DNA from: Candidatus Adlerbacteria bacterium
GTDB lineage: Bacteria > Patescibacteriota > Minisyncoccia > Phycocordibacterales > SBAW01
Direction of reading: 5' to 3'
Length of the DNA: 64,000 bases
NCBI GenBank assembly: GCA_029288895.1
Contig: JARIGK010000004.1
Coordinates: forward strand, 13,621 to 77,620
Shown here: positions 11,004-58,097 of the stretch, piece by piece
Numbering within the stretch: the stretch's first letter is position 1
Layout: every line of letters begins with the position of its first letter
Notes under the pieces: generated by a model
Database searches by the model: none
Told to the model about the DNA's origin: nothing
The model's input: the letters and a program-made list of their open reading frames with translations, nothing else
Position numbers and translations under genes: made by a program

Positions 11004-12344
11004 TCATTTCAACATAAGGCGGATCTGATTGAGCTCGCCTGAAAGTACACTGTCGTTGCGCAAATCATTCTTTATTTTCTCACACGAGTGGATCACTGTG
11101 GTGTGGTCGCGGCCGCCGAGTTTCTCGCCGATGGTGGGAAATGATATTTTAAAATCCTCGCGCAAAAGGAACATAATCACCTGGCGCGGGCGCACAACCT
11201 CTTTGCGACGCGTCTTTTCATAAATACTACTCTCTTCGACGCCGTAGAAGCCAGAAATTGTGCGCACCACTTCCTGCACTGACACGGCTTTTTTGGTAGC
11301 GCTTGAGGCACCACGAAGGAGCATCTTTGCATCATTAAGGGTGAGCGGCTCGCTGCGGAGTTCGAACTGGATAAGCAGCAAGTTAAGCGCGCCTTCCAAC
11401 TCGCGAACGTTGCCTTCAACAGCTGTCGCTAGATATTCGAGCACTTCGTCAGGCAAAATAACGTTATGTGCAGCCGCTTTTGTGCGAACAATGGCTAAAC
11501 GCGACTCGTGGTCGGGCGGCGTGACAGAAATGATCATGCCGGCGTTAAAGCGCGAGCGGAGGCGGTCTTCCAAGTTTTGGATGACATTCGGGTGTTGGTC
11601 GGACGAGAAGACAAGCTGCTTGTTGCCGTCGTGGAGATAGTTAAAGAGATGAAAGAATTCTTCTTTGGTCTTCTCCATCTTTGCCAAGAACTGGACATCG
11701 TCCATGATGAGCAAGTCATACTGGCGATACTTTTCTTTAAATGACTGCACTTTGCCCGCCTGCAGCGACGCAACGTAGTCCATCGAGAATTTTTCCGACG
11801 TAACGTACTGCACTTTACGCTCGGGCGCACTCATGCGGAAGTGGTTCCCTATCGCCTGGATAAGGTGTGTTTTGCCCAAACCTGTCGGGCCATAAATAAG
11901 GAGAGGGTTATAGGCGATGCCCGGTTTGCGGATCACCGCCTGCGCTGCTGCATGTGCAAGTTCGTTAAATGGGCCCACCACGAAAGAACTGAGGGTGAAG
12001 CGGGGGTTAAGGTTTGTCTTCGCGTGCACATTTTCAAGCGGGAGCTCGGAGGGCGGCGCCGGGACGGTGCGAGGCTCGTCGGTATGCTTCTTGGGGCCGC
12101 GGGAAATGATGTACTCCACGGTGCGGACGGTATCGGAGAGGCCGCGCAATGAGCGCAAAATATCCTTATGAAATTTGGTGGAAAGCCAGTCGCGGGCAAA
12201 TTGGCTCGGGACGCCAAGGAAGACAGTGCCGTCTTCTACCTTTACGACGTGGGTGTCTTTAAACCAGGTATTGAAATTAGGTTTGGAGATTGTAAGTTCG
12301 AGTTCGACCAGCGCGTTTTCCCATAGTTCTTTCGTGGTCGTCAT
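11004..12344 (-). CDS. dnaA: chromosomal replication initiator DnaA
   Basis: AAA+ Walker A GPTGLGKTHL, sensor motifs and a C-terminal DNA-binding domain. Confidence 0.95.
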   Translation of the reverse strand: MTTTKELWENALVELELTISKPNFNTWFKDTHVVKVEDGTVFLGVPSQFARDWLSTKFHKDILRSLRGLSDTVRTVEYIISRGPKKHTDEPRTVPAPPSELPLENVHAKTNLNPRFTLSSFVVGPFNELAHAAAQAVIRKPGIAYNPLLIYGPTGLGKTHLIQAIGNHFRMSAPERKVQYVTSEKFSMDYVASLQAGKVQSFKEKYRQYDLLIMDDVQFLAKMEKTKEEFFHLFNYLHDGNKQLVFSSDQHPNVIQNLEDRLRSRFNAGMIISVTPPDHESRLAIVRTKAAAHNVILPDEVLEYLATAVEGNVRELEGALNLLLIQFELRSEPLTLNDAKMLLRGASSATKKAVSVQEVVRTISGFYGVEESSIYEKTRRKEVVRPRQVIMFLLREDFKISFPTIGEKLGGRDHTTVIHSCEKIKNDLRNDSVLSGELNQIRLMLK

Positions 12345-13640: not shown

Positions 13641-14147
13641 GTGATGGCCGGACAGGTTGGCAGGGTGTCGGGATTGGAGTATTGTGGCTCTATGAGCCAG
13701 GACGCACTTACACAGTTTGTACAAACGCTTTTTTCGTCCATGGGCATACAGCCCTCCTCCCTTGTCGTCTCGAGTGGCCACCGCACGGTGGTCGCGGTAG
13801 CGCTCGATGATGCGTCTGCTTTTTTGAATAACAATGGCGAAGCGCTTCGGGCATTAAACGCGCTTGCCCGCCGCATTGTTGAGAAAGCTCATGGCGAAGA
13901 GGCAGCAAACTTCCTTATCGATATAAACGGCCATCACGAACAGCAGATGGAAGCAGTGCGCGCGAATGCGCGCATGTTGGCGCAGCGCGCCCGCCTCTTT
14001 AAACACGAAGTCGAAATGGAGCCAATGAGCTCGTACGAGCGCTTGGTCGTCCATGAACTGTTTGCAGAAGACCCAGAGATAGAAACGCGATCAGAAGGCG
14101 AAGGAAAATTCCGCCACATTGTGTTGGCCTTTCGCGGCGCAAAGTAA
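13641..14147 (+). CDS. jag: Jag/KhpB R3H-domain RNA-binding protein
   Basis: Jag_N-like N-terminus and a C-terminal R3H motif (SYERLVVHE). Synteny after yidC. Confidence 0.75.
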   Translation: MMAGQVGRVSGLEYCGSMSQDALTQFVQTLFSSMGIQPSSLVVSSGHRTVVAVALDDASAFLNNNGEALRALNALARRIVEKAHGEEAANFLIDINGHHEQQMEAVRANARMLAQRARLFKHEVEMEPMSSYERLVVHELFAEDPEIETRSEGEGKFRHIVLAFRGAK

Positions 14148-14161
14148 CTTTGTTGCCGGGC

Positions 14162-15367
14162 CTACAAACGCACGCCCCACAGTGATTGGTCGCCGCGGGT
14201 AATAAACCAGAGATACTTGCCATCTTGTGACACGCCGAGTTGTTCTATTGGTGCATTTGCGCCACCTTCCCCAGGAAGGGTTAAAACAATACCATCACCA
14301 ATATTAGTTTTAAATAAAACTATACTGTCAGCGGTCTGTACAAGACCTTTATGCCATAAATCAACATAGCCTCCTGTTACATAATCAATTGGGAGGGCGC
14401 AGTAGAGGTCGGTACGAATAGTCGGGCTCCATACGCACTTCTCGGGCAGTGGGTCGTTTGCAAGCGGTGCGTCCTTCCCTGTGGCAATATCGTGCGAATA
14501 GGTTGTTGCAGTGTTGTCGGTATCTTGGGCAGTCTGATACACCACTTTAGAAAATACGCTGTTAGCTAATGCGACGAGCCCGTTTGCAAAGAGCAATGGC
14601 GTTTGTGTGCCTAATTTTGCATCTATCACGAAGGCGGCGCCTGGTACCCCAGCAGCAGACTTACTTTGCAACATAAGTGTTGATGTTGCTGGCCATGAAA
14701 TAAGCACTTGCGAAAGCGGTGATGAAAAGAGTTTCCTTGGATTTGTGCCATCGATATTTGCAGTGTAGCCGTCGCTGCCCGCATTGGTTGTGAGCATATA
14801 CACCACACTTCGTGCGTCGGGCGAGAGTGCGAGTGAGGAAATGTTATTTGGCAAAAACTGTACTCGCAATGGTGCGCCTGTGCTGCTGGTTGTGGCCAAC
14901 GCTAGGTACACGCTCTTGAGCGTGCCGCTGTCCATATACTGCAAGATAGTTGTTGTGCCTGCGTTGCCCCACAGCGCATCCACAACACTTGGGATGGTTG
15001 TATTTGAGACAGGTTTTGACGCAGCACCCGGTACATCAATTGCTTGGTCTAGAATGTGGCCATTGTCTGCCATCACATAGCGCGCAAGCGTTGTTGTTGG
15101 CGAGAATGTTTCTACAAACGTTGCACCCGCAACCGGGCCGTTTGCGATTTTAAATACCTTTCCTTGAGACGAGTTTGGGATTACTCCATTGCCGCCCGTG
15201 TCGTTCCCTGCTGGTGTAACTGATACATTTCCCCCTACCCCAAAGAAGTTTGTAACGGACGGCCCACTCTGCTGGCTTGTAGAGCGGAAAAAGAAGAATG
15301 TAAGTATTCCTGCGATAAAGAGGAACACAACACCCACGCATATGTAGTAGAAAATATTTTTATTCAT
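14162..15367 (-). CDS. hypothetical membrane-anchored protein (N-terminal TM, Ser/Thr/Gly-rich, beta-rich), last gene of the T4SS-like operon
   Basis: Likely start MNKNIFYY followed by one TM helix. ATGA overlap with the upstream gene. Confidence 0.45.
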   Translation of the reverse strand: MNKNIFYYICVGVVFLFIAGILTFFFFRSTSQQSGPSVTNFFGVGGNVSVTPAGNDTGGNGVIPNSSQGKVFKIANGPVAGATFVETFSPTTTLARYVMADNGHILDQAIDVPGAASKPVSNTTIPSVVDALWGNAGTTTILQYMDSGTLKSVYLALATTSSTGAPLRVQFLPNNISSLALSPDARSVVYMLTTNAGSDGYTANIDGTNPRKLFSSPLSQVLISWPATSTLMLQSKSAAGVPGAAFVIDAKLGTQTPLLFANGLVALANSVFSKVVYQTAQDTDNTATTYSHDIATGKDAPLANDPLPEKCVWSPTIRTDLYCALPIDYVTGGYVDLWHKGLVQTADSIVLFKTNIGDGIVLTLPGEGGANAPIEQLGVSQDGKYLWFITRGDQSLWGVRL

Positions 15368-16296
15368 TTGTCTGTGATGCAGCCTTGATTTGGCCCAATC
15401 ATATCGCAATTATACGTGCCAGGATCTTTCCCTTTATCTTGTTTTACGTACTCACTTGCGCATGCGTTCCCACCGTATTTAGTTCTTGATATTATGGTTA
15501 TAAGTGTGCCCCCCTTTGCTTCGCAAGCCGTTTGATTTTTTTGAATCTGTGCGCTTAGATCAATTTGTGCAGGCGGTGGTGAAACGCCAGCAGTAGTTGC
15601 GGATATGACACTGCACGCACCAACCAACTGTGGGTTGAGGGTATTTAAAATAATCCATGATGCGAGCAAAATAATAAGCCCCCATACGGCTGCTTTAATG
15701 CGATCACGTGCGGCAGAGCGCTTATCGACCACCTCTGACACCATATAGGTGACACCTGCGAGGACAAGAAAGAGCACGGCCAACATGGCACCCAAATAGA
15801 TGAAGAATTTGAAAATAAGGTCAATGATTTGGCAGAAATTTGAGCCGCCGGACGTTTGCCCAGGGAACGGTTCAAGCGGTGTGTATGTAAGGCTGTTGGA
15901 TACAATAACGCCCTGGCCCCCTTTTGCGTTAACAATGTGTTGTCCGCTCGCACAACCACTGAGAGGCACTGGTCCTACATATTCCGAGGGGGCTGCTGCA
16001 GAATCGTCTGTCCAACATCCCGCCTGTGTGTTGGGGTTACTTGAAGGAGTAATGTAATTTGTAGATGTGTTCTCAGGAGCGCACTCAGGCTCGCCTGCTT
16101 CTCGAATACACATGACGCCCTGCATATCAGAAGGGCAGCCCGTACCTTTTGAATCTTGAGCTTTGGGCCCAGGTGTCATCACGCCCTGTGCTACTGCAAG
16201 TGTTTTGCTGTAACAGTAGAACGCAGCGTGCGTATGGTGCGGTATCCCAAATACCACAAACATACCTGCCATAATTAGTAATTTTCTATACGTCAT
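15364..16296 (-). CDS. cysteine-rich secreted/membrane protein (signal peptide plus internal TM helix)
   Basis: 310 aa with signal peptide MTYRKLLIMAGMFVVFGIPHHTHA, about 20 Cys, and a central hydrophobic helix FKFFIYLGAMLAVLFLVLAGV. Translationally coupled to its neighbours. Confidence 0.5.
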   Translation of the reverse strand: MTYRKLLIMAGMFVVFGIPHHTHAAFYCYSKTLAVAQGVMTPGPKAQDSKGTGCPSDMQGVMCIREAGEPECAPENTSTNYITPSSNPNTQAGCWTDDSAAAPSEYVGPVPLSGCASGQHIVNAKGGQGVIVSNSLTYTPLEPFPGQTSGGSNFCQIIDLIFKFFIYLGAMLAVLFLVLAGVTYMVSEVVDKRSAARDRIKAAVWGLIILLASWIILNTLNPQLVGACSVISATTAGVSPPPAQIDLSAQIQKNQTACEAKGGTLITIISRTKYGGNACASEYVKQDKGKDPGTYNCDMIGPNQGCITDK

Positions 16297-17315
16297 AGGC
16301 CAAAGAAGTTAGAGAGTGCTGAGCCGGTTTGTTTGCCAAATGTAAGTTGTAAGCCTGCACTTGCGGCTTGGGCGAACGTGCTGCTCTGTGTGTTTTGCAC
16401 ATCCAAGGAGAGACTAGCAACTCCACTACCCTCACCCGTTTGACGCAATGTGAGGAGGCCTTGTGCGCTATTGGGCCCTGTAACGTCTTGATTATTTAAT
16501 ACCCAGGCATACGTGATGCGACCATTTCGTACACTTGTATTTGCAAAATAGTACGGCTCCGCTTTAAGGGTCACTTCTGTTTGTGTGAGTGACGCGTTGC
16601 CAGAAAGGCCCTGCCCTAACAATTCGCCGCGCAACGGGTCTTGCGGGTAAAAGATAATTTGAGGATCTGAAGTAGGAATGGTTATGCTCCCGCGCCCCAC
16701 CGACACGCTGCCAGAATACACGGTGACCGAAATATCCTCCTCTGTTTGAAGTTGGTCGCCGTTAAATGAGTAGACATTTTTCCCAAGCCCAGAAACGTCG
16801 GGTTGCAAATCGTCATTGCGGTACCACTGGAACGAGAGTTTGCTTGATGGGATGAGCGCGCCTCCTATAAGCACGGTTGGGTATGCAATTACTTTGAGCG
16901 GCGAACCGGCGCTGTAGAGCCCTTTACCTTTATAGAGTGGGGGTGTGTAGGTGTCTGCTTCCCACATCATATTTACGACTGATGGGTTAAAGACAAAGTC
17001 GTGTTGGATAATGCCTTGTGTAGGCGAATTGATACGCAAATGGATGCGGGTGCCCACACCAACCCCGCCCGTGGTAAACGAAAATGTCATCTGGTTGTGG
17101 GCCGAGTCGACCGTCGTGCCATTTTGCTGCCAGGTAATGTCCGAATTGCCCAAAAATTGCCCAACACCCTGCACCTGGATACTTACCGTTTGGTTTGGCC
17201 CTGGGTTTTCTGGGATTACCGTGTACTGCACTGGGTCTGGGGCAATAGATTGTGCGTGTGCAATTGATGCACACACCATAAGAGTAATTATCGCGTAAAT
17301 ATACTTATGCCGCAT
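16293..17315 (-). CDS. secreted hypothetical protein (signal peptide; beta-rich)
   Basis: Signal peptide MRHKYIYAIITLMVCASIAHAQS. No family assignable. Confidence 0.5.
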   Translation of the reverse strand: MRHKYIYAIITLMVCASIAHAQSIAPDPVQYTVIPENPGPNQTVSIQVQGVGQFLGNSDITWQQNGTTVDSAHNQMTFSFTTGGVGVGTRIHLRINSPTQGIIQHDFVFNPSVVNMMWEADTYTPPLYKGKGLYSAGSPLKVIAYPTVLIGGALIPSSKLSFQWYRNDDLQPDVSGLGKNVYSFNGDQLQTEEDISVTVYSGSVSVGRGSITIPTSDPQIIFYPQDPLRGELLGQGLSGNASLTQTEVTLKAEPYYFANTSVRNGRITYAWVLNNQDVTGPNSAQGLLTLRQTGEGSGVASLSLDVQNTQSSTFAQAASAGLQLTFGKQTGSALSNFFGL

Positions 17316-17880
17316 ATGATGCTGCTTGGGGTGGGCGAACTCCATCGATAGTTTTGAGCTCAGGAACAGTTCGGCCTCGCGGTTTTTGTTCCTCGGGCGC
17401 AGTGGCTAGTTGAACTGGTTGCTCCGGGCGTGAAGGTGCTTGAGAGACAACAGATGCGGCAGCCGATATAGCCCCAATGCCAGTAACACCCCCTGCCAGC
17501 TTAAGTGCAACTGTTCCAATACTGCCCAGGTTCCCCTTTTCACTTTCTTTGCGGATAATGCAAAGAATGGTCATGACTGTCCACGCAGGCAAAACATCAA
17601 TACCAGGCATCATTTCTGTAATAGCCCCACCTGTTATGTAATTGAAATAAAACATACCGTTGTAGGCCAAAAGCGATATGAGGCCGATGCCAAATGTAAG
17701 GCTTGAGGTTATATCAATTACAAAACTAAGACTTGACGCTGCAGGTAATGCGATAGGGCCTGCGGCTCCTAGTGTGCTAGCAGTTGCCCCAGCTGCTACA
17801 CCAAAGATACTTGCAGAAGCAAATGCCTGAAGGCCATCGGTAAACATGGCAATCATGAGGAGTATGCCGTAACGAAGCAT
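17305..17880 (-). CDS. polytopic small membrane protein (T4SS-locus component)
   Basis: 191 aa, mostly hydrophobic with 4-5 predicted TM segments. Confidence 0.5.
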   Translation of the reverse strand: MLRYGILLMIAMFTDGLQAFASASIFGVAAGATASTLGAAGPIALPAASSLSFVIDITSSLTFGIGLISLLAYNGMFYFNYITGGAITEMMPGIDVLPAWTVMTILCIIRKESEKGNLGSIGTVALKLAGGVTGIGAISAAASVVSQAPSRPEQPVQLATAPEEQKPRGRTVPELKTIDGVRPPQAASYAA

Positions 17881-17902
17881 ACCCGTATTGTACCCTCACT
17901 TT

Positions 17903-19771
17903 TTATTGCGCAGGAGTTGTTGCCGGGGCTTCTGCACGCCCTTCGGCCGCTTCTGCTTGCTGGCGGCGGATAGCCAAGACCTGTGATGGGTCCGAGGTGA
18001 TAATTTGGTCTTCCGTGTATGAGGCAATCACCTTAATGGCCACGTGTTTGAGGCCGGCAAAGAAGATACCCTCCCCTACATCAGACTCCAAGAGCAGATA
18101 TTTCTCTTCGTCTGAAAGGTTAAAGGTCTTTTGCAGGTTGTCGATGGTTGTTGGCGACTGTTTGAGCAATAGTTGGATAGAGGAGTTCGTAATCATCGGC
18201 AGCCCGTACGGCGACTTCAAAAAGTCGTCGACGTCTTGGGTAATGGTTGCAAGCCCAAGATAGTATTTGCGGCCGCGCTTTGCCATCGAGTAAAGGAAGG
18301 ATGCCGTGTCTTCCGACTTCATCATCCACCACGCTTCGTCGATAACGAGCAGGCGCTTCTTCAAATTTTTGCGTACTGCATTCCAGATGTAGTGCGTAAT
18401 GATGTACATCGCGACCGGCTTCAAATCGTCCTCCATGTCGCGCACAGAAAATACGACAAAGCGTTTGTTCAAGTCGACGTTGGTTGGCTGGTTGATAAAG
18501 CCTGCCCAGGTACCGTTTACATATTTCGAGAGGCGCTGCGAGAGCGACTCACTCCCCTCCATGCCGGCAAGTACTGTTGCAAAGTCGGACAACAGTGGCG
18601 GTTCGATCTCGGCAAAGTTCGACTCAATAGTGATGTCTTTGAGCGCATACGTTTCGGTAATCGCGCGGTCAATGATCGCATCTTCTTCAGGTGAGAGGCC
18701 GCCGAGCATGATGCGGAAGAGGCCAACAAGCGAAACGATGTTCGAGCGCAAGATGTCCGATGGGTTCTCATCTTCCCGCGGCATTGGCAAATCAAACGGG
18801 TTGATGTGGTGTTCGGATGAGAGTGAAATATTAAAGTAGCGCCCACCTACCGTCTGCGAGAGGAATTCGTATTCGCGTTCTGGGTCGATAACGATAACCT
18901 CTGTGTCGAACATGAGTGTGCGCAAGATTTCGAGCTTGGTTGCGTATGATTTGCCCGAACCTGATTTTGCAAAAATAACTGAGTTGTAGTTTTCGAGTGA
19001 GAAGCGATCAAAGAGCACAAGCGATGCGTTGTGGCGGTTTACTCCGTACAAGATACCCTTGTCGGATGTGAGGTCAAACGATACGAATGGGAAAATAGAT
19101 GAAAGCGGCGACGAATTGAGCTTTGAATTAACATTCAATTCGTCATTTGCCAGAGGTAGGGTGCTGCGGAAGCCTTGGACCTGCTGGAACAATGCTGGCT
19201 TTACATAAATGAGGCGGCTTTCAAGCATAGACTTGATCTCGCTCTCCGTTTTATCAAGCTCCTCAATGGTTTTTCCGTATACGGTGATATAGACGCCCAC
19301 GTCAAAGATGCGCTCTTCTGCTTGTTGAAGCTGGTCGCGCAAATCTTCCAAGTCGCGGTACGCGGTGTCCAAAATTGGGTCGCGCACCAAGCCTTTGTCT
19401 TCGCGCGACATAATTTGGCTCTGTACCTCGGCCACCTTCTTTTGGAACTTCTTCAAGATTTCGGCCGAATCGATTGGGTGCACAAAGATCGAGATGTCGA
19501 GCACGCGGTCGAGGTTGATGATTGGCGCAAACCACGAGTCGACAAGGGTGCGCGGGTACGACATCACAAAGAAGGTGCGTGCAATTTTGTCGCCCAAGTT
19601 CAATTCGCGCGGCGTAATTTTTAGAGCCGAGGGTGCAATAACATCTTGCAACTCCAAGACACCTTGCTTGTAAATCGCCTCGGGCATAATAGGTGCTACC
19701 GGGGCCGTTTGCGACGAGTCGTTTTTTGGTTTTAAGAAATTGAGGAGTGCCATAGATGTATTATCGCGCAA
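17903..19771 (-). CDS. virB4: VirB4/TrbE/CagE-family conjugative T4SS ATPase, C-terminal 622-aa portion (TTG start in track; ATG at 19753)
   Basis: Walker A AKSGSGKSYATK, Walker B RLLVIDEAWWMM and the VirB4 N-proximal motif IAPSALKITPRELNLGDKIARTFFV...YPR. Confidence 0.8.
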   Translation of the reverse strand: MRDNTSMALLNFLKPKNDSSQTAPVAPIMPEAIYKQGVLELQDVIAPSALKITPRELNLGDKIARTFFVMSYPRTLVDSWFAPIINLDRVLDISIFVHPIDSAEILKKFQKKVAEVQSQIMSREDKGLVRDPILDTAYRDLEDLRDQLQQAEERIFDVGVYITVYGKTIEELDKTESEIKSMLESRLIYVKPALFQQVQGFRSTLPLANDELNVNSKLNSSPLSSIFPFVSFDLTSDKGILYGVNRHNASLVLFDRFSLENYNSVIFAKSGSGKSYATKLEILRTLMFDTEVIVIDPEREYEFLSQTVGGRYFNISLSSEHHINPFDLPMPREDENPSDILRSNIVSLVGLFRIMLGGLSPEEDAIIDRAITETYALKDITIESNFAEIEPPLLSDFATVLAGMEGSESLSQRLSKYVNGTWAGFINQPTNVDLNKRFVVFSVRDMEDDLKPVAMYIITHYIWNAVRKNLKKRLLVIDEAWWMMKSEDTASFLYSMAKRGRKYYLGLATITQDVDDFLKSPYGLPMITNSSIQLLLKQSPTTIDNLQKTFNLSDEEKYLLLESDVGEGIFFAGLKHVAIKVIASYTEDQIITSDPSQVLAIRRQQAEAAEGRAEAPATTPAQ

Positions 19772-20429
19772 CTTGGGTCACCTGCAGCGGTTTTTCCAGC
19801 TCGCCTGGGTTAAAGAGTTTGTAGAACAACTCAATAATTTCTTCTGTACCAAGCGAAACGATACGCACGCCGGTGCGCACCAAGCCCTGTTCAATCACAG
19901 ACATGCGTTGCTCAAGCTGCGTTCGGTATTCTTCGAACTGTTCATCCGTGAGTGCCGAGTTATTACTTGCGTTCTTTGATGGGATAAATGTTGAGAGTGC
20001 ACCGGCGACCCCCTTTCCTCGCCCGATAAGCGCTGGGTCATATGGTACGACGATAAAGAAATTTTTTGTCATGATGTTCGAACGTGCAGTAAAGTCTTTG
20101 ATGAAGGCGATATACTCGCGGATTTGGATTTTCATCAAGTCGTCGAGTTCGGCAGCGTAACGCTCTTCGAGCAATGCAATGTAGGGGCGGATATCCAAAT
20201 CGCGGCTTTCGATAAAAAACTGCACCGAAAACTCGAGTGAGTTGAGAAAGTTCTGGAACTGGCCAATGATGGCGCTTTGTTCGTCTTGTGACTTCAATGC
20301 CAAGTTAATCGACGATGCCATCATAAGCGAGCGCAAAGAACCATCCTTTAAAATAACAACGCCGCCGCGTACTTCTTGGATGGGTACAAACTCCTGTGTT
20401 GCTTGTGCTTTTGCGCTTTCGTTAGCCAT
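19761..20429 (-). CDS. VirB4-family N-terminal fragment (222 aa) in a different frame, overlapping the ATPase ORF by 11 nt
   Basis: VPIQEVRGGVVILKDGSLRSLMMASSINLALKSQDEQSAIIGQFQNFLNSL resembles the extreme N-terminus of Gram-positive VirB4 homologues (Tn916 Orf16 / PrgJ type). Confidence 0.6.
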   Translation of the reverse strand: MANESAKAQATQEFVPIQEVRGGVVILKDGSLRSLMMASSINLALKSQDEQSAIIGQFQNFLNSLEFSVQFFIESRDLDIRPYIALLEERYAAELDDLMKIQIREYIAFIKDFTARSNIMTKNFFIVVPYDPALIGRGKGVAGALSTFIPSKNASNNSALTDEQFEEYRTQLEQRMSVIEQGLVRTGVRIVSLGTEEIIELFYKLFNPGELEKPLQVTQVAR

Positions 20430-20433
20430 ACAT

Positions 20434-20856
20434 CTAGATAGAACTCTTTTCCTTTATATTGAGCGACCAGGCCAAGTCTTTGAGCCTACTGTCAGAAAGT
20501 TTGGGCACCCCAACCATTGGGCCAGACTGGCTAGACATAGATTGAGTGGGGATGGTGGGCATGGCAGGCGCAGAGGGGGTTTTTTGCTTCCATAGATAGA
20601 GTTTGCTGCCTACATAGTAGCCAAATGCATGTTCGACCGCGTTGATAAACGGGCGGCCGTTTACTTCGTAGAATGCGAGCGCGAGCGAGAACCCGACAAC
20701 GGGCACACCTAAGAGTATAGTCAGATAGATAGGTAAAAAGGTGAAGAAGACGAGGCACAACCCACCTGCGCCTGCCAAATAGATAAATTGCTTGAGCGTC
20801 AACGGCCCAAATATTTTATCTTCAACTTCGATAAATTGAGGAACCTGATACCGCAT
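20434..20856 (-). CDS. PrgI-like (VirB3-analogous) small T4SS membrane protein
   Basis: MRYQVPQFIEVEDKIFGPLTLKQFIYLAGAGG... followed by two TM helices, the PrgI-family signature. Sits immediately upstream of VirB4, as in Gram-positive conjugation loci. Confidence 0.55.
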   Translation of the reverse strand: MRYQVPQFIEVEDKIFGPLTLKQFIYLAGAGGLCLVFFTFLPIYLTILLGVPVVGFSLALAFYEVNGRPFINAVEHAFGYYVGSKLYLWKQKTPSAPAMPTIPTQSMSSQSGPMVGVPKLSDSRLKDLAWSLNIKEKSSI

Positions 20857-20878
20857 TCCTCTTTAGTATATAGCACTT

Positions 20879-21565
20879 CTACTCTACCGGTTCGCGATAC
20901 GGGTCGCTTTTGTAGATTGGTTTTGGTGCGCCAGGTGCTTGCCCTGCGGGTGCAGGCGGCGGTACGGCAACAGTAGGCTGCGTAAGAGCCGTTTCAACTG
21001 CTGGCATACTTGGTGCTTTTGGTGCGACGGGTGCTGCCGGCATAGGTGTTGGCGGAATTGTCGTTGGCGTTACGGAAATCGGTGCTGGGGCAACAGGTTT
21101 TGGAGCAGGAGTTGGTGCAGTAGCCGGGACTGTAGGTGCAGCAATAGGCGTTTGAGGTATAACCCGAACAGGAATTTTATTCACTGCTGGAGTTGAAGCG
21201 GCCACTGATGCTGGGGTGGCAATAGGTGCCGCAGTAGGTGGCGGCGTAGATCCAACCTTCTTGAGCGATTCACGAATCTTAATAAAAAGTTCGTTATTAA
21301 TATCTTGTGCTATTGCCTCAGCCTTTGGTTGTTCCACGGACAAAGCGTCAACGAGTTCTTGTACAAATTCACTCGGTTCGGTTAGACCAATCATAACCGC
21401 CGCTGTCTCAGATTCGAGCGCACCGATTTGGTCCACATGCAGCTGATATTTTTGCCCAATAGAGTGTATAACTGCGCCCATATCAGCACTGTATACAAGT
21501 GCTTTAATGTCTGCAGGGAGCGCGTCCATTCGCTTTTGTATTTCGTCTGTATAGTAGTCACTCAT
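20879..21565 (-). CDS. hypothetical protein with Pro/Ala/Thr-rich C-terminal half
   Basis: 228 aa with a structured N-terminus and a PT/PA-rich linker-like C-terminus. Confidence 0.45.
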   Translation of the reverse strand: MSDYYTDEIQKRMDALPADIKALVYSADMGAVIHSIGQKYQLHVDQIGALESETAAVMIGLTEPSEFVQELVDALSVEQPKAEAIAQDINNELFIKIRESLKKVGSTPPPTAAPIATPASVAASTPAVNKIPVRVIPQTPIAAPTVPATAPTPAPKPVAPAPISVTPTTIPPTPMPAAPVAPKAPSMPAVETALTQPTVAVPPPAPAGQAPGAPKPIYKSDPYREPVE

Positions 21566-21574
21566 ACATGTATT

Positions 21575-23794
21575 CTAACTCGGCCTTTTAATAGTAGTCT
21601 TAAATGCTGCCGGGGCTTCAACCCCACCCACTTTTTCAGGGACGTTCTTCATCTTTTCTATGAGCTTCTCAAGCTCAGATGTTGCTTTATTCAACTGTTT
21701 TGCTTGTTCGCCGGCCTTTGTTCTTTCAGCCTTGCCGCCAGGTCTGTCATCTCTTGTGCGATCATCGCGGATTTCTTCCAATTCTTCTTTCTTAGAGTCA
21801 ATCTGTTTCTTCATGCTTTCTGCTTCCTGAAGTGTAATAGTCACCGTTGCCCCTTCAGGTTGAGAGAACTTGTGCATCATAGGAAGCTGGGTTGCAATGT
21901 CACCCATACCTTTCTTGTCTTTGAGTACGTCATAAAGTTTACCAATATTTGCAAGGTGTTTATCAGATTCGTTCTTCGGTGATTTGCTGTTTTCTTCTTG
22001 CCATTTGCGGGTGATATTTTCCATTGCCTGCTTTGTCTGCAAACCACTTTCCTTGATAGCTTTGAGCTGACCCTCAGACACCTGTTTAATGATGTTTTCA
22101 ATATCCTTTTGGTTGAATGTAGCAAGAACCTTGCCGTCAATCTCAGAGGTACGTTTTGCAAGTATGGCATGTTCGGTTTTGAGGTCGGCCATTGTTTTGC
22201 CTTCCTCACGAACAACAGAGGCCATCTTTTCTCGAAGTGCATCGCGCTCTCGTTCTTCGTCTGCAGTAAGGGGACGATCAGTAATACTCTCAATGCCCTG
22301 AAGTTTCTTTTCGCTGCCGATGTAATTCTCAAGTACACCGAGGCGTTTGGTATTTTTCTTAGCAGCAATTTTCTTGAGGTTACCGTCACGCTCATCAAAG
22401 TTCTCCTTACGAACTTTTTCGATCTCTTTATATTGTTTGCCGCCGAATACTGAAGATTTTGCTGCTGCACCAATTGTATTTCTGCGTGCGGCAGCGCCGA
22501 GATACGTGTTGAGCAAAGGCACACTCTTTGCTTTATCGTTGAGTTTGTTAACACCATACCCTACCGTGCGGTTACGAGTCCATGATGCTGCGCCCCCCAC
22601 TTTGCCACCAGCCCAACTTACAGCGCTATGTGCGAGGCCGCTCCCCATTTCGCTGAAAGCGTCCGATTTTTTTACGGCATAGTACAAAAGCACTACCACC
22701 AAGCCAACGCGGATACCAACGTTTGCTATCAATGAGAAAACATCCATCGTACTGCCGTTCTTCTGCGCTTGATTGAAAATGCTTGGAAGTAGACCATTTG
22801 CGCCTGCGCTGAACCCCTTCAAGAACAGTGTCATGATGTAGAACAAGAAGAGGAAGACGGCCGGGTAGAATGCTGACGCTATAAGATTGTCTTGCCACTG
22901 AGCATAGTATGCACGGTATTTTTTGCCGCTATGCGTCTCTGGTATTGCGTATGCAATAAAAGCTAGTGGCGAAGCAATTATCGTTATCCATAACACGACG
23001 ACACGTATGAGGAGTCGTACTCCGACAATAAGGAATGAGAATGCGAGTAGTGCAAGGAAGATACCAACTGCGAGATATATAGCGACTTGCCCTCCAAGGC
23101 GCTGGAAAAAACTACTTTTGTCGCGCCAATCTTTGAATGAGTCAGTACCCATAAGAGTTTGGATGCCGACTGAATCCATTAAGCCGCTTGTTAGATCCTT
23201 GACGTAGGTAGGCGATTTCCCATTTAGTGGTGATGCGACCGTGGCTGATATGGGCAACGCGTTGTAGAACTGCACCGCTAAAATATTACCCGCGTCTATC
23301 ACGACACGCGTAAAGAAGAAACTGAAGTTTATCAGCAACGCCATAACAACAACACCCGCAAGCATGCGCATCGTGCCCGCGGTCTCGGCCTCCATGATGA
23401 TGGTGTAGGCGATATATATAAGGATGAATATGAACCCAAGGTTTGCTATGTCGCGCACAACGGCCCACCCTTGGCTTAAGAAGTCGAGTGCATACGAAGC
23501 GCTATTAAGGCCAAGTTGTAAAGCAAAGTTAAGTAAGTACCCAGCCGCATTTGCTATGACAGTGGGGATATACACCGCAAAAAGGTAGACAATGTTACTA
23601 ATGCATAGGTCAAAGTTGCTCGTAAGGCCGCATCCCAAGTCTTCTGCGTGTGCAACCGCAGCTTGCCCGGTAGTGAGTTGGACTGGTGCGAAGGCGACGC
23701 CAAAAAGCACAAGCGCCAACGCAACCCCCGCAACTATTTTTTTCTTACTAGTGGACAGCATGGCATTGTGTGAGCGACGCGGACGTTTGCGCAT
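21575..23794 (-). CDS. VirB6/TrbL-like polytopic membrane protein with a long C-terminal coiled-coil/charged domain
   Basis: About 7 TM helices in the first about 400 aa and a Lys/Glu-rich coiled-coil tail. Size and position are consistent with VirB6 analogues. The start may be at MLSTSKK (23761). Confidence 0.5.
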   Translation of the reverse strand: MRKRPRRSHNAMLSTSKKKIVAGVALALVLFGVAFAPVQLTTGQAAVAHAEDLGCGLTSNFDLCISNIVYLFAVYIPTVIANAAGYLLNFALQLGLNSASYALDFLSQGWAVVRDIANLGFIFILIYIAYTIIMEAETAGTMRMLAGVVVMALLINFSFFFTRVVIDAGNILAVQFYNALPISATVASPLNGKSPTYVKDLTSGLMDSVGIQTLMGTDSFKDWRDKSSFFQRLGGQVAIYLAVGIFLALLAFSFLIVGVRLLIRVVVLWITIIASPLAFIAYAIPETHSGKKYRAYYAQWQDNLIASAFYPAVFLFLFYIMTLFLKGFSAGANGLLPSIFNQAQKNGSTMDVFSLIANVGIRVGLVVVLLYYAVKKSDAFSEMGSGLAHSAVSWAGGKVGGAASWTRNRTVGYGVNKLNDKAKSVPLLNTYLGAAARRNTIGAAAKSSVFGGKQYKEIEKVRKENFDERDGNLKKIAAKKNTKRLGVLENYIGSEKKLQGIESITDRPLTADEERERDALREKMASVVREEGKTMADLKTEHAILAKRTSEIDGKVLATFNQKDIENIIKQVSEGQLKAIKESGLQTKQAMENITRKWQEENSKSPKNESDKHLANIGKLYDVLKDKKGMGDIATQLPMMHKFSQPEGATVTITLQEAESMKKQIDSKKEELEEIRDDRTRDDRPGGKAERTKAGEQAKQLNKATSELEKLIEKMKNVPEKVGGVEAPAAFKTTIKRPS

Positions 23795-25841
23795 TAAGTG
23801 ACGACATCTGGGCCTGGAGTGTAGTGCGATTTTGCTGGGCGTTTACTACATCGGTTTGCGAAACTAGTTTTCCTGACACTTTTGCTGAATTGTAATCGCT
23901 CTGCACAGCACTCACATCCGAAGCAGAGCCAACAGAGAGTGCACGGTTTTGTAGAGATTCGAGCAAGACGATTGCGTTATTTGCGAGCGTGATGCGGTTA
24001 TTGTATGAATCGACCAACATATTGAGCGAGGCAATGGTGCTTGATGCCTGTCCGGCGCTTGATGCAGCGGTGCCAGCCGATGATGAGCTCGACGCAACCC
24101 CGCTCCAGCAGTTGAAGAGGTCGTTAAGTTGGCTTTGTGTGCTTTGGATGTCCTGGATACTCCCCTGCTGTATTGTTGCGTACGAAACAGCATTGTTCGT
24201 GTCTTGCTGCATTTGTGTCACAAGGCCTTGTCCTTGTTCTTGCGACTGTAATTGGTCGGTGCTGTAGAAGTTGCTTGCATAACCATCAGCACCGCTCAAG
24301 GTTGAGAGGCCGCTTTGGAGTGTGCGCGTCATAAGCTGGTTAATGAGCGCGCTGATAATTTCGTCAAAGCTCTTTGCAAGCCCAATTTGGTCGAGTGTGC
24401 TTTTTTCTGTTGCGCCGAGCGAATCTGCAATAACGCGGCCAGGGGTTGTCGTCACCCAATCACATACAGTGTAGGTACCGTTGCCATTGTCTTTTGAGGA
24501 TTTATTTGGAGACGTGTTTGCAGCTGTAGCATTCGGGTTGCAGTTTTGCTTTTTCTGGAAGGAGAGGAAGCCAGAGCCTTGCAACAAGTCGGTCTGGACT
24601 TGATTCTGAGCTTTTGTTGCAGCAGTTTGGAGGCCAATAGAGCCATAGACGAACGCGCCGTACGGGTTATTTGTTGGAACGGTCGTAAATTGGATAAAGG
24701 CTGGCCATCCACCCGCGGTACTAAACGTTCCGCGCATGAAGTTGTTGATATTTTTTGTGACTTGCGTCAGGGTACAAGAATTGGCATTTCGTTGCGCATA
24801 ACTTTGCGCGATAGCAATACGGATTTGCAATTGGAATGGGCTGCAGAGGAAGGAGAGAGCGCTGCTTTGGATGTAATTGCCTGCGACCACATCGGCAGTT
24901 TGCTGAATGAATTTTGATGGGTTTTGCACGAACGAAGGTGAGCCATTAAAACCAGAGTTGATCCAGTTGACGACGCTTGCGGTTATTTGCTGCAACATAA
25001 TCTTTGCGATGTTGCGCGCCATACAGCCAAGGAACTGGTCAATCGTCTGCTGGCCTGTTTGATTGCCATTGGCGCGTGCGATTTCTCCCGACAACAAGCT
25101 TGTGCCGATTTGGAAACGGATATTTTCAGTCAAATCAACAGTTGATACGCTTCTCACGACTTCTTCTGCCAGCAATGTATCGGCTGCTTTTTGTGCGGCA
25201 ACTTGTTTTGCAGTGCCTTCAGTAAAGCCCAATGCTTGTGCTGCGAGTTGGATGGCTGGCACAATGGCGCACGTTACGACGCCAACACCGGCAGCGGCCC
25301 CTATAGAGCCAAGCGCCGAACCGCCTCCCCCACCTGTTTGTTGTCCAAAATTGTTTACACCGATATTGGGTACTCCGTCTGGTCCACCGTTACCTGATGG
25401 GTTTGACTGTGCAATTTGATTGATTGCCGTTGGGTTAAAAACGGTGCCGGGCCCACTTGTACTTCCACCTGTAGTGCCGCCTGGTGTGCCCGAAAGCCAA
25501 ATAACGCCAGGCACGCCAACTTCGCCCTGTGGCTCCGTTATAGCCGGGACGCCTCCAACAGCAAGAGTTCCTTGTCCATTTGTATTCCCTACCGTGCCCA
25601 AGTCGACATTGGTTTGCGCGCTTGCGGTTTGGTCTTGGCCAGGCAATTGTGTTGCGCCATTGGTTTGGTCGTTCGTGCCTCCAGTGTCCCCTTGAGTTTG
25701 GCCAGCGTTCTGGGCCGTACCAAATGTCCCCGTTGTTTGTTTGACCGCACTCTCGCGTTGCAAGAACCACCACCACAACAGCACAAAGAGCAGTACAACT
25801 GCGAGTGCTATGAGGATCATGTAGAGTACCTTTCTGTTCAT
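23748..25841 (-). CDS. large secreted/TM-anchored low-complexity protein (697 aa; Gly/Thr/Gln/Ser/Asn-rich)
   Basis: N-terminal TM anchor MNRKVLYMILIALAVVLLFVLLWWWF and long G/T/Q-rich tracts. Candidate surface or adhesin component of the T4SS-like locus. Confidence 0.5.
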   Translation of the reverse strand: MNRKVLYMILIALAVVLLFVLLWWWFLQRESAVKQTTGTFGTAQNAGQTQGDTGGTNDQTNGATQLPGQDQTASAQTNVDLGTVGNTNGQGTLAVGGVPAITEPQGEVGVPGVIWLSGTPGGTTGGSTSGPGTVFNPTAINQIAQSNPSGNGGPDGVPNIGVNNFGQQTGGGGGSALGSIGAAAGVGVVTCAIVPAIQLAAQALGFTEGTAKQVAAQKAADTLLAEEVVRSVSTVDLTENIRFQIGTSLLSGEIARANGNQTGQQTIDQFLGCMARNIAKIMLQQITASVVNWINSGFNGSPSFVQNPSKFIQQTADVVAGNYIQSSALSFLCSPFQLQIRIAIAQSYAQRNANSCTLTQVTKNINNFMRGTFSTAGGWPAFIQFTTVPTNNPYGAFVYGSIGLQTAATKAQNQVQTDLLQGSGFLSFQKKQNCNPNATAANTSPNKSSKDNGNGTYTVCDWVTTTPGRVIADSLGATEKSTLDQIGLAKSFDEIISALINQLMTRTLQSGLSTLSGADGYASNFYSTDQLQSQEQGQGLVTQMQQDTNNAVSYATIQQGSIQDIQSTQSQLNDLFNCWSGVASSSSSAGTAASSAGQASSTIASLNMLVDSYNNRITLANNAIVLLESLQNRALSVGSASDVSAVQSDYNSAKVSGKLVSQTDVVNAQQNRTTLQAQMSSLNAQTSASLTQCHAVH

Positions 25842-26734
25842 TATTGTTGTGCTTGCAACAGCAAACTCCAGGTATTACCTGGTTCGTCCGTTGTAAAAAG
25901 TATATCGTTTTTATTGAGTGCCTGAGCGATATTTATAAACATCTGCCCCGCATCTTGTGAGATGGTGCGATATTGCTGCAGGGCTGCAAAGGCGCCAAGC
26001 GGGTCACCTGCAATATTTTCCATCCCGTCATAGGTTGCAGCCATCTTTGCGTAATCATTGATAAGTTCAAGATGGAACGGTTCCAGTGTTTTAGGTACTG
26101 GAGTAGCTGCAAGTTTTGTCGCCAATAACACATACTTTTTTTGTATCGTTCCGAGTAGCGGGAGTTTGTCTGAACCTGTGCCATCCGTTGCGGCGTTCAT
26201 GATGAGCAATGTTTTTGCAAATTCTTGGTCAGAATTTTTTATAAAAATATCCATGGTTGCATTGCCGTACGCATGTAAATTGGCAGAACTATTGTCCGCA
26301 AGGGTGAGATCTGCCACGGTGTACGTTTTTTCTGGTGCAACAGCATCAACTTGCGAAACAGCAGTCCTCACAAGCTTTTCTTGTGTTGGGATATCATCGC
26401 CCAACCCTTGGCTTTTCATGGTTATAAGGTTTGCCAAGAGGCCGCGGGATACGGCATCAGTTAAGTTGCCACTTTTCGCAGCTTGAATAAGCCCATCAAG
26501 ATTGCTTTGGTCGTTCGACGCGTCAGTTGTTGATGCGTCCGAAGTGCCCTGTACAGCAGTAAGCGACGCTTCCCAATTAGTGGCGCTTACAGATGTGTTT
26601 GTATCAACCCCAACTTGGGCAATGGGGTGAGGTTTTGTGGTGTAGTCGGCGAGGAAGACAAGCCCGATCGATAGTACGAGTGAAGCTGCGATGAGGATAA
26701 ATTGCCTGCTTGGCAGGTAGGTGCGAGCGTCCAT
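25841..26734 (-). CDS. TM-anchored hypothetical protein, first gene of the T4SS-like operon
   Basis: 297 aa with an N-terminal TM. Its stop overlaps the start of the next gene. Confidence 0.5.
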   Translation of the reverse strand: MDARTYLPSRQFILIAASLVLSIGLVFLADYTTKPHPIAQVGVDTNTSVSATNWEASLTAVQGTSDASTTDASNDQSNLDGLIQAAKSGNLTDAVSRGLLANLITMKSQGLGDDIPTQEKLVRTAVSQVDAVAPEKTYTVADLTLADNSSANLHAYGNATMDIFIKNSDQEFAKTLLIMNAATDGTGSDKLPLLGTIQKKYVLLATKLAATPVPKTLEPFHLELINDYAKMAATYDGMENIAGDPLGAFAALQQYRTISQDAGQMFINIAQALNKNDILFTTDEPGNTWSLLLQAQQ

Positions 26735-26779
26735 TACCCCAAGTATACCGTCGTTTCGAAGGTGTACTATTGTATATAT

Positions 26780-27332
26780 GAAGTATCGAGGTATCTTCCT
26801 TCTGTGTTTGATGGTAGTTGGTACATGGAGCGTGCCTGGGGCAGCTTCCGCGAGCGTTTTTCTTTCCGCTGGTGGGTATGTTGTTGGCCCGGTTGGTGCG
26901 TGTCTCCAGCTTGATGGCGGCGTTGGGCTCCTATTCCACCTTATACCCGATGGTCGCGTTGTTCCTCTTGTCCCGCCTGACTATATATGGAGTCCCACAA
27001 CCATAACGGTTCCTATACCTGAACGCCCTCCGGTCATCGGACAGCAGGTACTGGGCCTTGTATACCCTAACTTTTTGCAGGGTATATGTATTAAAAGCAC
27101 GTTTCCATTCGTAGCTGTTGGAGGCTGGAAGTTCGTATATATGGGAGAAAGTCTTGTACCAGCCCCGCCTGGCGCTGGGTTGGCGGCAGCTTCAGCAGCA
27201 ATAGGCGCTTCTGCAGGTGTGACTGCTGGGGCTACTGCAGCCTCGAGTGCAAGCACTGCCGCTATTACAGCTGCAACTGCGGCAATAGGGGCGGCCCTTA
27301 TTATAGGTGCAGCCTCAATCGGCAAAAAATAA
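26780..27332 (+). CDS. secreted protein with Ala/Thr-rich hydrophobic C-terminal tail (184 aa)
   Basis: Signal peptide MKYRGIFLLCLMVVGTWSVPGAASA and C-terminus AAITAATAAIGAALIIGAASIGKK. Divergent from the T4SS operon. In frame within track ORF 26721..27332. Confidence 0.45.
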
Positions 27333-28109
27333 TTAACCTGCAAGTCCCAACCACTTCTCGAGCGGTACATCTTCGGCACGGGCGGTGTCAGAGATATCCA
27401 CATCTCTGAAGCGTTCAGCAACGTCTTTGCCGAGCACGGGCTCCAAATTTCGCTTCAGTAATTTTCGTTTTTGGCCAAAGCCGGCTTTTACAACCTCAAA
27501 GAATTTTTCTTCGTGTGCGGCATTTTTAAAATTCTTTTTCGACACATTCGCCACGAGCAAAATTGCCGAGTCGACATTGGGTGCAGGGGCAAATGCGCCA
27601 CGCGGCACGGTCTTTACATACTTCACATCGCCGTACGCTTTTACCGACAGCGAGAGGATGCTTTCTTTTTTTTCGCGTGCGATGCGTTCAGCAACTTCTT
27701 TTTGCATCAAGAACACGAGTGTCTGCGGCTGGCGTTCTTCCGACAAAAACTTTTTCAGTAAGGCCCCCGTGATGTAGTACGGAATGTTTGCGACAAGTTT
27801 GTATGGCTTCTTCCCTACCACTGCCTCAGTGTCTACTTCGAGCGCGTCGGCTTCCAAGACAGTAAGGCGTTTCTCTCGAATCTCTTTTGTAAACGTTACT
27901 TCAAGTATTGGAATGAGACGATGATCTTTTTCGACTGCGACAACATATGCGCCGCGTGCGAGTAATTCTTCGGTGAGTGCGCCTTCGCCCGGGCCAATTT
28001 CAAGTACTACGTCCCCTTCCTTCACATCCGCAGCGTCAGCGATGGCGCGCAAATATGCGGTGCTCTTTAAAAAGTTTTGGCCCAGGGATTTCTTTTTTTG
28101 CAGCGCCAT
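27333..28109 (-). CDS. rsmA: 16S rRNA (adenine1518/1519-N6)-dimethyltransferase RsmA/KsgA
   Basis: SLGQNFL motif, SAM-binding EIGPGxGALT and NIPY motif. Start at MALQKKK (28109), adjacent to the pcrA stop. Confidence 0.85.
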   Translation of the reverse strand: MALQKKKSLGQNFLKSTAYLRAIADAADVKEGDVVLEIGPGEGALTEELLARGAYVVAVEKDHRLIPILEVTFTKEIREKRLTVLEADALEVDTEAVVGKKPYKLVANIPYYITGALLKKFLSEERQPQTLVFLMQKEVAERIAREKKESILSLSVKAYGDVKYVKTVPRGAFAPAPNVDSAILLVANVSKKNFKNAAHEEKFFEVVKAGFGQKRKLLKRNLEPVLGKDVAERFRDVDISDTARAEDVPLEKWLGLAG

Positions 28110-28110
28110 A

Positions 28111-47347: not shown

Positions 47348-47351
47348 ATAG

Positions 47352-58087: not shown

Positions 58088-58097
58088 TATTCCTAGT

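Follow-up and report, generated by a model that had tools for sequence, protein, structure and literature searches.

The 64,000-nucleotide stretch analyzed here (hereafter the window), taken from contig JARIGK010000004.1 of a Candidatus Adlerbacteria bacterium, carries on its minus strand, between positions 14162 and 26734, eleven tightly packed co-directional open reading frames (ORFs) that appear in ORF calling as one operon-like cluster and that very probably encode a core chromosomal type IV secretion system (T4SS). The genes, named g1 to g11 in the order of transcription, are the following.

25841..26734, minus strand, 297 aa: g1, N-terminal transmembrane (TM) anchor (residues 11-29), disordered linker and all-helical extracytoplasmic domain (~140-297)
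23748..25841, minus strand, 697 aa (690 aa from ATG 25820): g2, TM anchor, G/T/Q-rich low-complexity region, second hydrophobic segment (176-194), conserved Cys-containing domain and C-terminal long helical bundle
21575..23794, minus strand, 739 aa (728 aa from ATG 23761): g3, probable divergent "extended" VirB6-like polytopic membrane protein
20879..21565, minus strand, 228 aa: g4, helical N-terminal domain (~105 aa) followed by a Pro/Ala/Thr-rich tail
20434..20856, minus strand, 140 aa: g5, PrgI family protein, VirB3 analogue and membrane partner of VirB4
19761..20429, minus strand, 222 aa: g6, TrsD/TraD family protein, free-standing equivalent of the VirB4 N-terminal domain
17903..19753, minus strand, 616 aa (ORF reaches TTG 19771): g7, VirB4 ATPase, motor of the system
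17305..17880, minus strand, 191 aa: g8, small polytopic membrane protein of no Pfam family
16293..17315, minus strand, 340 aa (ORF reaches 17345): g9, secreted protein with a signal peptide and three ~105-aa repeats
15364..16296, minus strand, 310 aa: g10, VirB2-like T4SS pilin domain with Cys-rich N- and C-terminal extracytoplasmic extensions (12 Cys)
14162..15367, minus strand, 401 aa (ORF reaches TTG 15409): g11, N-terminally anchored extracytoplasmic TolB-like beta-propeller

The raw ORFs encode 297, 697, 739, 228, 140, 222, 622, 191, 350, 310 and 415 aa from g1 to g11, and inspection of the start codons together with the lengths of the homologues led to shorter models for four of the genes, which start at ATG 23761 (g3), ATG 19753 (VirB4), ATG 17315 (g9) and ATG 15367 (g11). 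One base is shared at the g1/g2 junction (TAATG), ATGA overlaps join g9 to g10 and g10 to g11 (with the g11 ATG at 15367), and at the remaining junctions of the revised models two pairs of genes overlap by 11-14 nt and the others lie 4-22 nt apart. An earlier note on this DNA, made from the sequence and a list of its ORFs, had described an eleven-gene, co-directional and coupled minus-strand operon with a GC content like that of the backbone. The ORFs and their tight junctions bear out the first description, and the values of 0.48-0.50 for the operon and 0.51-0.54 for the flanks agree with the second. The membrane topologies given in that note were likewise recovered in a hydropathy scan, which placed single N-terminal anchors in g1, g2, g9 and g11 and none in g4, g6 and g7. 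Rfam and tRNA scans of the locus gave no match. Consensus scans of positions 13900-27600, uninformative for this organism, returned 8 promoter-like sites (14.2 expected), none of them upstream of g1, and 30 terminator-like sites (16.8 expected) dispersed within genes.

The motor of the system is readily recognized. The product of g7 matches the NCBIfam equivalog model of the CD1110 family (NF045971) with 390.5 bits, above the cutoff of 325, over positions 184-733 of the 752 of the model, and it also matches the Pfam families P-loop_TraG (3e-27), AAA_10 and DUF87, with both the Walker A (AKSGSGKS) and the Walker B (LLVIDE) motifs intact. Its closest solved structure is the VirB4 domain of Thermoanaerobacter (PDB 4ag5, 1.6e-40), and TrwK of R388 is a distant match (2e-8). 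The preceding gene, g6, belongs to the TrsD family (NCBIfam NF041427, E 3.6e-10) and aligns with positions 2-117 of the CD1110 VirB4 model and with positions 98-233 of the Mycoplasma VirB4 model; its orthologues are encoded by ORFs of 209-289 aa. Judged by these alignments, TrsD and VirB4 together correspond to one full-length VirB4. A VirB4 ATPase in two ORFs had been proposed before, and both the two ORFs and the VirB4 identity stand, with the correction that the first ORF is a separate TrsD protein and the gene is not broken. With VirB4 starting at ATG 19753, which gives a protein of 616 aa like its homologues, g6 and g7 do not overlap. A frameshift or pseudogene was ruled out as the cause of the split, given that the two-ORF layout is conserved in 76-78 of the 80 related loci described below and that g6 matches the TrsD family. 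Two genes upstream of VirB4, g5 matches the PrgI family (PF12666, E 5.7e-10, 40 bits against a cutoff of 27).

A ranking of the curated VirB4 models places CD1110 first and Mycoplasma Mbov_0397 second, with the MPF-T and MPF-F models scoring far lower. The best homologues of g7, 88-95% identical, are labelled Candidatus Adlerbacteria, Paceibacterota or "Patescibacteria group", and the closest plasmid-borne VirB4s, from Streptomyces, Priestia, Pontibacillus, Clostridium and Bacillus (Firmicutes and Actinobacteria), show 29-36% identity. The designation of the system as Gram-positive-type in the earlier note is justified by the VirB4 structure match and by the plasmid relatives from Firmicutes and Actinobacteria, and it finds further agreement in the CD1110 cutoff, the PrgI-type VirB3 and TrsD. 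By its VirB4 models, PrgI and TrsD the system falls into the MPF-FATA class, its placement in a clade therein being taken from PMC12102498.

Comparison with other genomes showed that the cluster is a constant part of the chromosome. When one genome of each GTDB species was scanned, at least 573 loci with a VirB4 relative emerged, of which the best 80 were kept; all of these belong to Paceibacteria (Adler-, Kaiser-, Nomura-, Campbell-, Taylor-, Zambryskibacteria etc.), and each gene of the window was searched against them by tblastn, many of the loci being incomplete. The order uvrD > ksgA > g1 g2 g3 g4 PrgI TrsD VirB4 (g8) g9 g10 g11 > jag < yidC < rnpA < dnaA > dnaN is invariant across these 80 species representatives. 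Such a fixed order indicates a core chromosomal feature and not an island, and the "chromosomally fixed" of the earlier note, put to this comparison, is upheld by the same position and order throughout. Matches were found in all 80 loci for VirB4, in 78 each for g9 and TrsD, in 76 for PrgI, in 65 for g11 and in 60 for g3, followed by g4 (47), g10 (46), g2 (38), g1 (30) and g8 (8). VirB4, with identities of 75-95% across Paceibacteria, is the most conserved protein of the neighbourhood, its median identity being 77% against 56% for DnaA, 49% for KsgA, 39% for DnaN and 36% for YidC; the medians for PrgI and TrsD are 51% and 60%, respectively. The identity of VirB4 exceeds that of DnaA in 54 of 54 loci, these having been picked by VirB4 similarity, a difference that points to a cellular function under strong purifying selection.

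A closer look at g10 changed its reading from a Cys-rich signal-peptide protein with an internal TM segment to a VirB2-like pilin with two internal TM helices. The T4SS_pilin family (PF18895) matches residues 156-220 (E 1.3e-9, 38.4 bits against a cutoff of 26.6), where the helices 164-182 and 202-220 are connected by the loop EVVDKRSAARDRIKAA, and weaker matches were obtained with TrbC/VirB2 (PF04956, 0.081) and with the NCBIfam Mbov_0395 pilin-like model (6e-5). Among 46 orthologues, 38 match PF18895 and 2 match TrbC. Thus VirB4, PrgI and the VirB2-like pilin, for which profile searches had been proposed in the earlier note, all pass the curated cutoffs, and the ATPase is not of a non-T4SS type. 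The pilin is atypical in its N-terminal (~130 aa) and C-terminal (~90 aa) extensions, both rich in Cys. Only the two-helix core is conserved in the family, and the Cys-rich extensions vary widely, with total lengths of 134-580 aa. Both termini face outwards in the solved VirB2-type pili, and for this reason the extensions of g10 would decorate the outside of the pilus. One orthologous ORF also matches the subtilase domain Peptidase_S8, and modules are swapped between species in the accessory proteins, as seen in the orthologues of g2 and g10.

The channel component is less evident. According to the hydropathy scan g3 contains seven hydrophobic segments within its first 360 aa, followed by a hydrophilic K/E-rich coiled-coil tail of ~370 aa. 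The profile built for it found no VirB6 among solved structures. However, 8 of 58 positional orthologues match TrbL/VirB6 (PF04610, best E 6e-5), and residues W110, N156-F157-S158, N170 and R264 are invariant. g3 is therefore probably a divergent VirB6, an assignment that is made through the orthologues and that the topology fits. Of the VirB6/TrbL-like protein with seven TM segments and a long coiled-coil tail that had been proposed, the topology was confirmed, and the VirB6 identity comes from the 8 of 58 orthologues, not from a Pfam match of the window protein itself.

Of the remaining proteins of the operon, g1, g2, g8, g9 and g11 are accessories specific to Paceibacteria. g1 was modeled by AlphaFold2 (AF2) with a mean confidence (pLDDT) of 78.6, above 90 in the C-terminal domain, and consists of helices only; no Foldseek match in the PDB below E 0.5 and no Pfam or NCBIfam match were found. 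When detected, it is always the first gene after ksgA. A role of g1 as the missing VirB8-like protein was ruled out, the model being all-helical and without a match to NTF2. In g2, the conserved Cys-containing domain is marked by the motif WINSGFxGxPxFVxNP...LCSPF and was modeled with low confidence, as opposed to the C-terminal 170 aa, which form a helical bundle with a pLDDT of ~98. Searches with g2 gave no Pfam, NCBIfam or PDB profile match, and Foldseek returned nothing below E 0.1 and only generic helical bundles. Some of its orthologues carry extra modules, namely F5/8-type-C (6 of 35), Bact_surface_Ig-like (2) and PG_binding_1, and these adhesive, Ig-like and peptidoglycan-binding additions suggest a location at the surface or cell wall; g2 is probably surface-exposed. 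Neither a VirB5-like tip nor a VirB1-like hydrolase is supported for this protein, with no profile or Foldseek match and a single orthologue matching DUF4141. Proteins 100% identical to g1 and to g2 are present in NCBI.

g4 is rich in proline (17%) and alanine (16%), has neither a signal peptide nor a TM segment and showed no significant match in Pfam or NCBIfam; its N-terminal half is conserved in 47 of the 80 loci, always between g3 and PrgI. g8 is too divergent for tblastn, which found only 8 close relatives, and yet a positional orthologue lies between VirB4 and g9 in 33 aligned loci, which have in common the motifs F-x-D-x-x-Q and E-x-I-P-x4-L-P-x-W-T. Each of the three repeats of g9 contains an invariant tryptophan (W72, W174 and W281, at a spacing of ~100 aa). 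Weak profile matches to Ig-like structures (Hoc, 3shs, 3.4e-4) and weak BiPBP_C, Ig_3 and PKD matches of the orthologues point to repeats that are probably Ig-like beta-sandwiches. The family profile of g11 matches 12 TolB beta-propeller structures (best 4r40, 5e-5), and its orthologues show weak PD40 and DPPIV_N matches and two invariant cysteines (C325 and C337).

The stretch between g1 and ksgA (26735-27332), for which no gene had been listed in the earlier note, in fact holds a gene on the opposite strand, starting at ATG 26778 and separated from g1 by 43 bp.

26778..27332, plus strand, 184 aa: divergent gene, small secreted two-Cys protein with a signal peptide and the motif FGG...PC(T)C...LG...C...G[ST]SL

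At least 10 loci have a relative of this gene between ksgA and g1, likewise oriented against the T4SS genes (for example L008:2682-3092(-), L016:1454-1768(-) and L056:1752-2144(-)). G32, G33, C42, G93 and C104 are invariant in the family, whose members end in G[ST]SL. The copy in the window carries an extra Ala-rich hydrophobic C-terminus and has no Pfam match. The gene is possibly associated with the T4SS cluster. In several relatives it adjoins a larger ORF that, judged by eye, resembles a PG_binding_1 repeat.

The cluster is embedded among housekeeping genes, with dnaN, dnaA, rnpA, yidC and jag on one flank and ksgA and uvrD on the other. The genes of the flanks and other genes of the window that bear on the system are listed below.

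9703-10803: dnaN
11004-12344: dnaA
12510-14147: rnpA, yidC and jag
27333-28241: ksgA
28111-30000: uvrD/pcrA
30328-31428, plus strand: LysM-M23 peptidase, ~3.6 kb upstream of g1, beyond ksgA and uvrD and on the opposite strand
32079-33617, minus strand: comM
1294-2979, plus strand: PilB-like T2SSE ATPase with an MshEN domain (type IV pilus)
40849-41757: XerC/D-like tyrosine recombinase, 14 kb from the cluster, among housekeeping genes

The PilB-like ATPase, the LysM-M23 peptidase, which might take the functional place of VirB1, and ComM are envelope and competence genes near the T4SS. A total of 41 ORFs of the window were scanned with Pfam, comprising the operon, the flanks and the 20 larger of the ~40 other ORFs. 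These 20 matched housekeeping or unrelated families only, among them RuvB, PBP1, PNPase, the CCA-adding enzyme, a Trp/Tyr-type (class I) aminoacyl-tRNA synthetase, YcaO, TrmB-type regulators, the PilB-like ATPase and the XerC/D-like recombinase. Neither VirD4 nor a relaxase was found among these 41, and none of the scanned ORFs matches the coupling-protein families T4SS-DNA_transf, TraG-D_C or TrwB. The statement of the earlier note that no relaxase or VirD4 is visible consequently holds for the 41 scanned ORFs, the flanking genes among them.

Cumulative GC skew is lowest at ~10-11 kb, which fits a replication origin beside dnaA; a search for DnaA boxes gave 19 near-matches against 11 expected, a few of them near dnaA, an excess too weak for locating oriC. 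Were the origin indeed beside dnaA, the T4SS operon, ksgA and uvrD would be transcribed toward it, head-on to replication, which is unusual for a conserved and presumably well-expressed operon. The origin-facing orientation is the same in all 80 loci, the putative origin being taken from gene context and GC skew.

The T4SS cluster is already described, including the position near dnaA and ksgA and the layout of TrsD followed by VirB4, so that the window is a further example and a rediscovery of a published system. In a survey of 3,035 Patescibacteria genomes, VirB4 was found in 2,417 and formed a monophyletic Patescibacteria clade nested in MPF-FATA, with TrsD, PrgI/VirB3, VirB6 and VirB2-like genes near virB4, almost no relaxases, and dnaA, dnaN, rnpA and ksgA as the neighbourhood in Paceibacteria (PMC12102498, Quinonero-Coronel et al. 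2025, Microb Genom). In a review, the T4SSs of Patescibacteria are treated as a new and by now established branch of this superfamily of secretion systems (PMC12857230, FEMS Microbiol Rev 2025). The system of Southlakia epibionticum (SEML1_0006-0019), Gram-positive-like in composition, with pilins and without a recognisable relaxase or coupling protein, was shown by transposon sequencing (Tn-seq) to be essential for epibiotic growth (PMC10633639, Wang et al. 2023, Cell).

The window shares with this clade VirB4, a free TrsD, PrgI/VirB3, the probable VirB6-like protein and the PF18895 pilin, as well as a chromosomal location by dnaA/dnaN and a cluster without relaxase or VirD4; the components, the dnaA/dnaN/rnpA/ksgA position and the lack of a relaxase in the scanned ORFs are all found together here. 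In contrast to the Saccharimonadia prototype, the window has a single Cys-decorated pilin instead of an array of six small ones, one VirB6-like gene instead of two, no lysozyme-like and no NTF2/VirB8-like gene in the operon, and accessories of its own, i.e. g1, g2, g8, g9 (putative triple Ig-like) and g11 (TolB-like propeller). The monoderm MPF-FATA systems (pGO1/pSK41 Trs, pIP501 Tra, pCF10 Prg/Pcf and Clostridioides CTn2 CD1110) have in common with it the VirB4 class, the PrgI-type VirB3 and the lack of VirB7/9/10, and pGO1/pSK41 also a separate TrsD before VirB4. Unlike these conjugative systems, the window shows no relaxase or coupling protein among its scanned ORFs and no oriT, its operon has no VirB1-type hydrolase or VirB8-like gene, a VirB2-like pilin is present (most Gram-positive systems have none) and the locus is fixed in the chromosome and not borne by a plasmid or an integrative and conjugative element (ICE). 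The T4SS of the Mycoplasma ICE (Mbov_0397/Mbov_0395), from another wall-poor monoderm lineage with a pilin-like protein in an MPF-FATA system, is similar in that VirB4 and TrsD align to its VirB4 model (270 bits) and the pilin gives a weak match (6e-5). However, both scores stay below the equivalog cutoffs (270 against 590 and 22.6 against 40 bits), and the Mycoplasma system is mobile and conjugative. Archaeal Ced and H. pylori ComB resemble the system as T4SS-derived machines without a relaxase that were repurposed for a non-conjugative and possibly inward-directed task, but the similarity to CedB is short, sub-threshold and limited to the P-loop, and no CedA, CedA1, CedA2 or ComB-specific components were found.

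Taken together, the locus is very probably a core chromosomal T4SS of Paceibacteria (Patescibacteria, or Candidate Phyla Radiation, CPR), with a VirB4 of the Patescibacteria-specific clade that derives from the monoderm MPF-FATA conjugation machinery, and would act as a pilus-bearing conduit for host association and not in plasmid transfer. A use other than plasmid transfer, as put forward in the earlier note, would fit the lack of a relaxase and VirD4 in the scanned ORFs and is in agreement with PMC12102498 and PMC10633639. By homology, the cytoplasmic motor would consist of VirB4 and the free-standing TrsD-type N-domain protein, with the PrgI/VirB3-like protein as its membrane partner and the VirB2-like domain as the pilin core. 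The divergent VirB6-like protein with its long cytoplasmic tail, as suggested by its orthologues, would supply the channel. The domain content and topology of the lineage-specific extracytoplasmic proteins g1, g2, g9 and g11, together with the variable Cys-rich decorations of the pilin, suggest that they could form the part exposed at the surface and in contact with the host. In this scenario the pilus-bearing conduit of an obligate host association may move proteins or other macromolecules, not a plasmid, between epibiont and host.

Several points weigh against this reading. We know of no experiment on the T4SS of any member of Paceibacteria. Essentiality was shown for one Saccharimonadia species only, whose accessory genes differ (lysozyme-like, NTF2-like and six pilins; PMC10633639). 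Searches of the operon with Pfam and NCBIfam (VirB8, PrgL and TcpC families) and inspection of the g1 model gave no VirB8-like protein of NTF2 fold, and none of the eleven genes encodes a VirB1-like hydrolase (SLT, CHAP, lysozyme or M23) according to the same databases. The window g3 has no Pfam match, including to PF04610, which makes the VirB6 assignment indirect, and the roles proposed for g1, g2, g4, g8, g9 and g11 are deduced from co-location and predicted topology. Furthermore, 5,713 VirD4-like genes are present in 2,918 Patescibacteria genomes, mostly far from virB4 (PMC12102498). Since most genomes of the group thus carry VirD4-like genes elsewhere, the statement that there is no coupling protein holds for the window only; a VirD4-like gene may lie elsewhere in this genome, and a DNA substrate is possible.

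The alternative that survives best, although we regard it as rather unlikely, is a machine for the import of DNA or nucleotides, in which the T4SS works inward like archaeal Ced or H. pylori ComB and host DNA is the source of nucleotides for an organism unable to make them. Import of DNA or other macromolecules is favoured by the authors of PMC12102498, no relaxase or VirD4 was seen among the scanned ORFs, comM and the PilB-like ATPase lie in the same window, and VirB4 gives a weak partial match to CedB (NF041017, 8.7e-11). This match, however, covers only ~70 residues around the P-loop and reaches 41 bits against a cutoff of 700, and none of the operon proteins was recognized as a DNA-binding component. 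Moreover, deletion of comEC in Southlakia abolishes competence and leaves viability unaffected, whereas the T4SS is essential (PMC12857230), so that the essential role in this organism is not that of ComEC-coupled DNA uptake.

VirB4 is the ATPase of pilus biogenesis in canonical T4SSs, which lends some weight to a second alternative, that VirB4, VirB3 and VirB6 solely assemble a decorated VirB2-type pilus for attachment to the host and nothing is translocated. The VirB2-like pilin with its hypervariable extracellular extensions would suit such an apparatus, as would the adhesion-type folds of the operon and its relatives (Ig-like repeats, beta-propeller and the F5/8-type-C modules of g2 orthologues). 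Nevertheless, Patescibacteria already adhere by type IV pili (PMC10633639, PMC12206443) and a PilB-like ATPase is encoded in the window, and more than the assembly of a pilus is suggested by how extremely VirB4 is conserved and by an extended VirB6-like channel protein having been retained, which makes an adhesive function alone improbable. Finally, a remnant or active ICE lying near the origin by chance can be dismissed almost completely, and with it an integrated plasmid: components descending from monoderm conjugation systems and a tyrosine recombinase at 40849-41757 speak for an ICE, but the same position and order in 80 species-level genomes, the housekeeping context, the backbone-like GC content, the stronger constraint on VirB4 than on DnaA and the lack of a relaxase or VirD4 in the scanned ORFs and of flanking repeats or an integrase (the recombinase being XerC/D-like, 14 kb away and among housekeeping genes) rule it out.

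A more speculative and, on balance, unlikely reading is that the accessory set of Paceibacteria (g9, g11, g10, the g2 domain, g8 and the FGG-PCTC protein) constitutes an undescribed extracellular module that turns a conjugation-derived motor into a host-piercing conduit for the import of nucleotides, lipids or proteins. If this were true, the functions of VirB8 and VirB1 would be taken over by unrelated proteins, and such an import conduit would account for VirB4 varying less than DnaA.

Other parts of the window show groupings of their own. On the plus strand between 57972 and 62400, the gene for a 2OG-Fe(II) oxygenase (57972-58865) is grouped with those for a YcaO cyclodehydratase (60121-61662) and for a protein of the nitroreductase family (61666-62400); they could form a modification cluster of the azoline/thioamide type for ribosomally synthesized and post-translationally modified peptides (RiPPs), which would be a surprise in a CPR genome of reduced size. 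Within 14 kb there are three paralogues of a TrmB-type winged-helix regulator, each of ~250 aa (37827-38567, minus strand; 42383-43168 and 51073-51837, plus strand). An 804-aa carbamoyltransferase (NodU/CmcH-type) fused to a C-terminal methyltransferase (47352-49766, minus strand) lies next to a further methyltransferase (46655-47422), which suggests a cluster for the tailoring of small molecules or glycans.

The Patescibacteria account for much of bacterial diversity and depend on host cells. Few machines are kept by nearly all of them; this T4SS is among these, and it is essential for growth on the host in the single species tested. What is transported and in which direction are questions at the centre of CPR biology. 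To the published picture the present analysis adds the probable Ig-like repeats of g9, the propeller of g11, the decorated pilin of g10, the positional orthologue of g8, the helical nature of g1, a g2 without recognisable fold and the higher conservation of VirB4 than of DnaA. The window thus provides a clean and complete Paceibacteria example with refined gene models, including lineage-specific accessories that published surveys with hidden Markov models (HMMs) had left unannotated, and the list of these accessories could guide structural work, or genetics once a co-culture of Paceibacteria becomes tractable.

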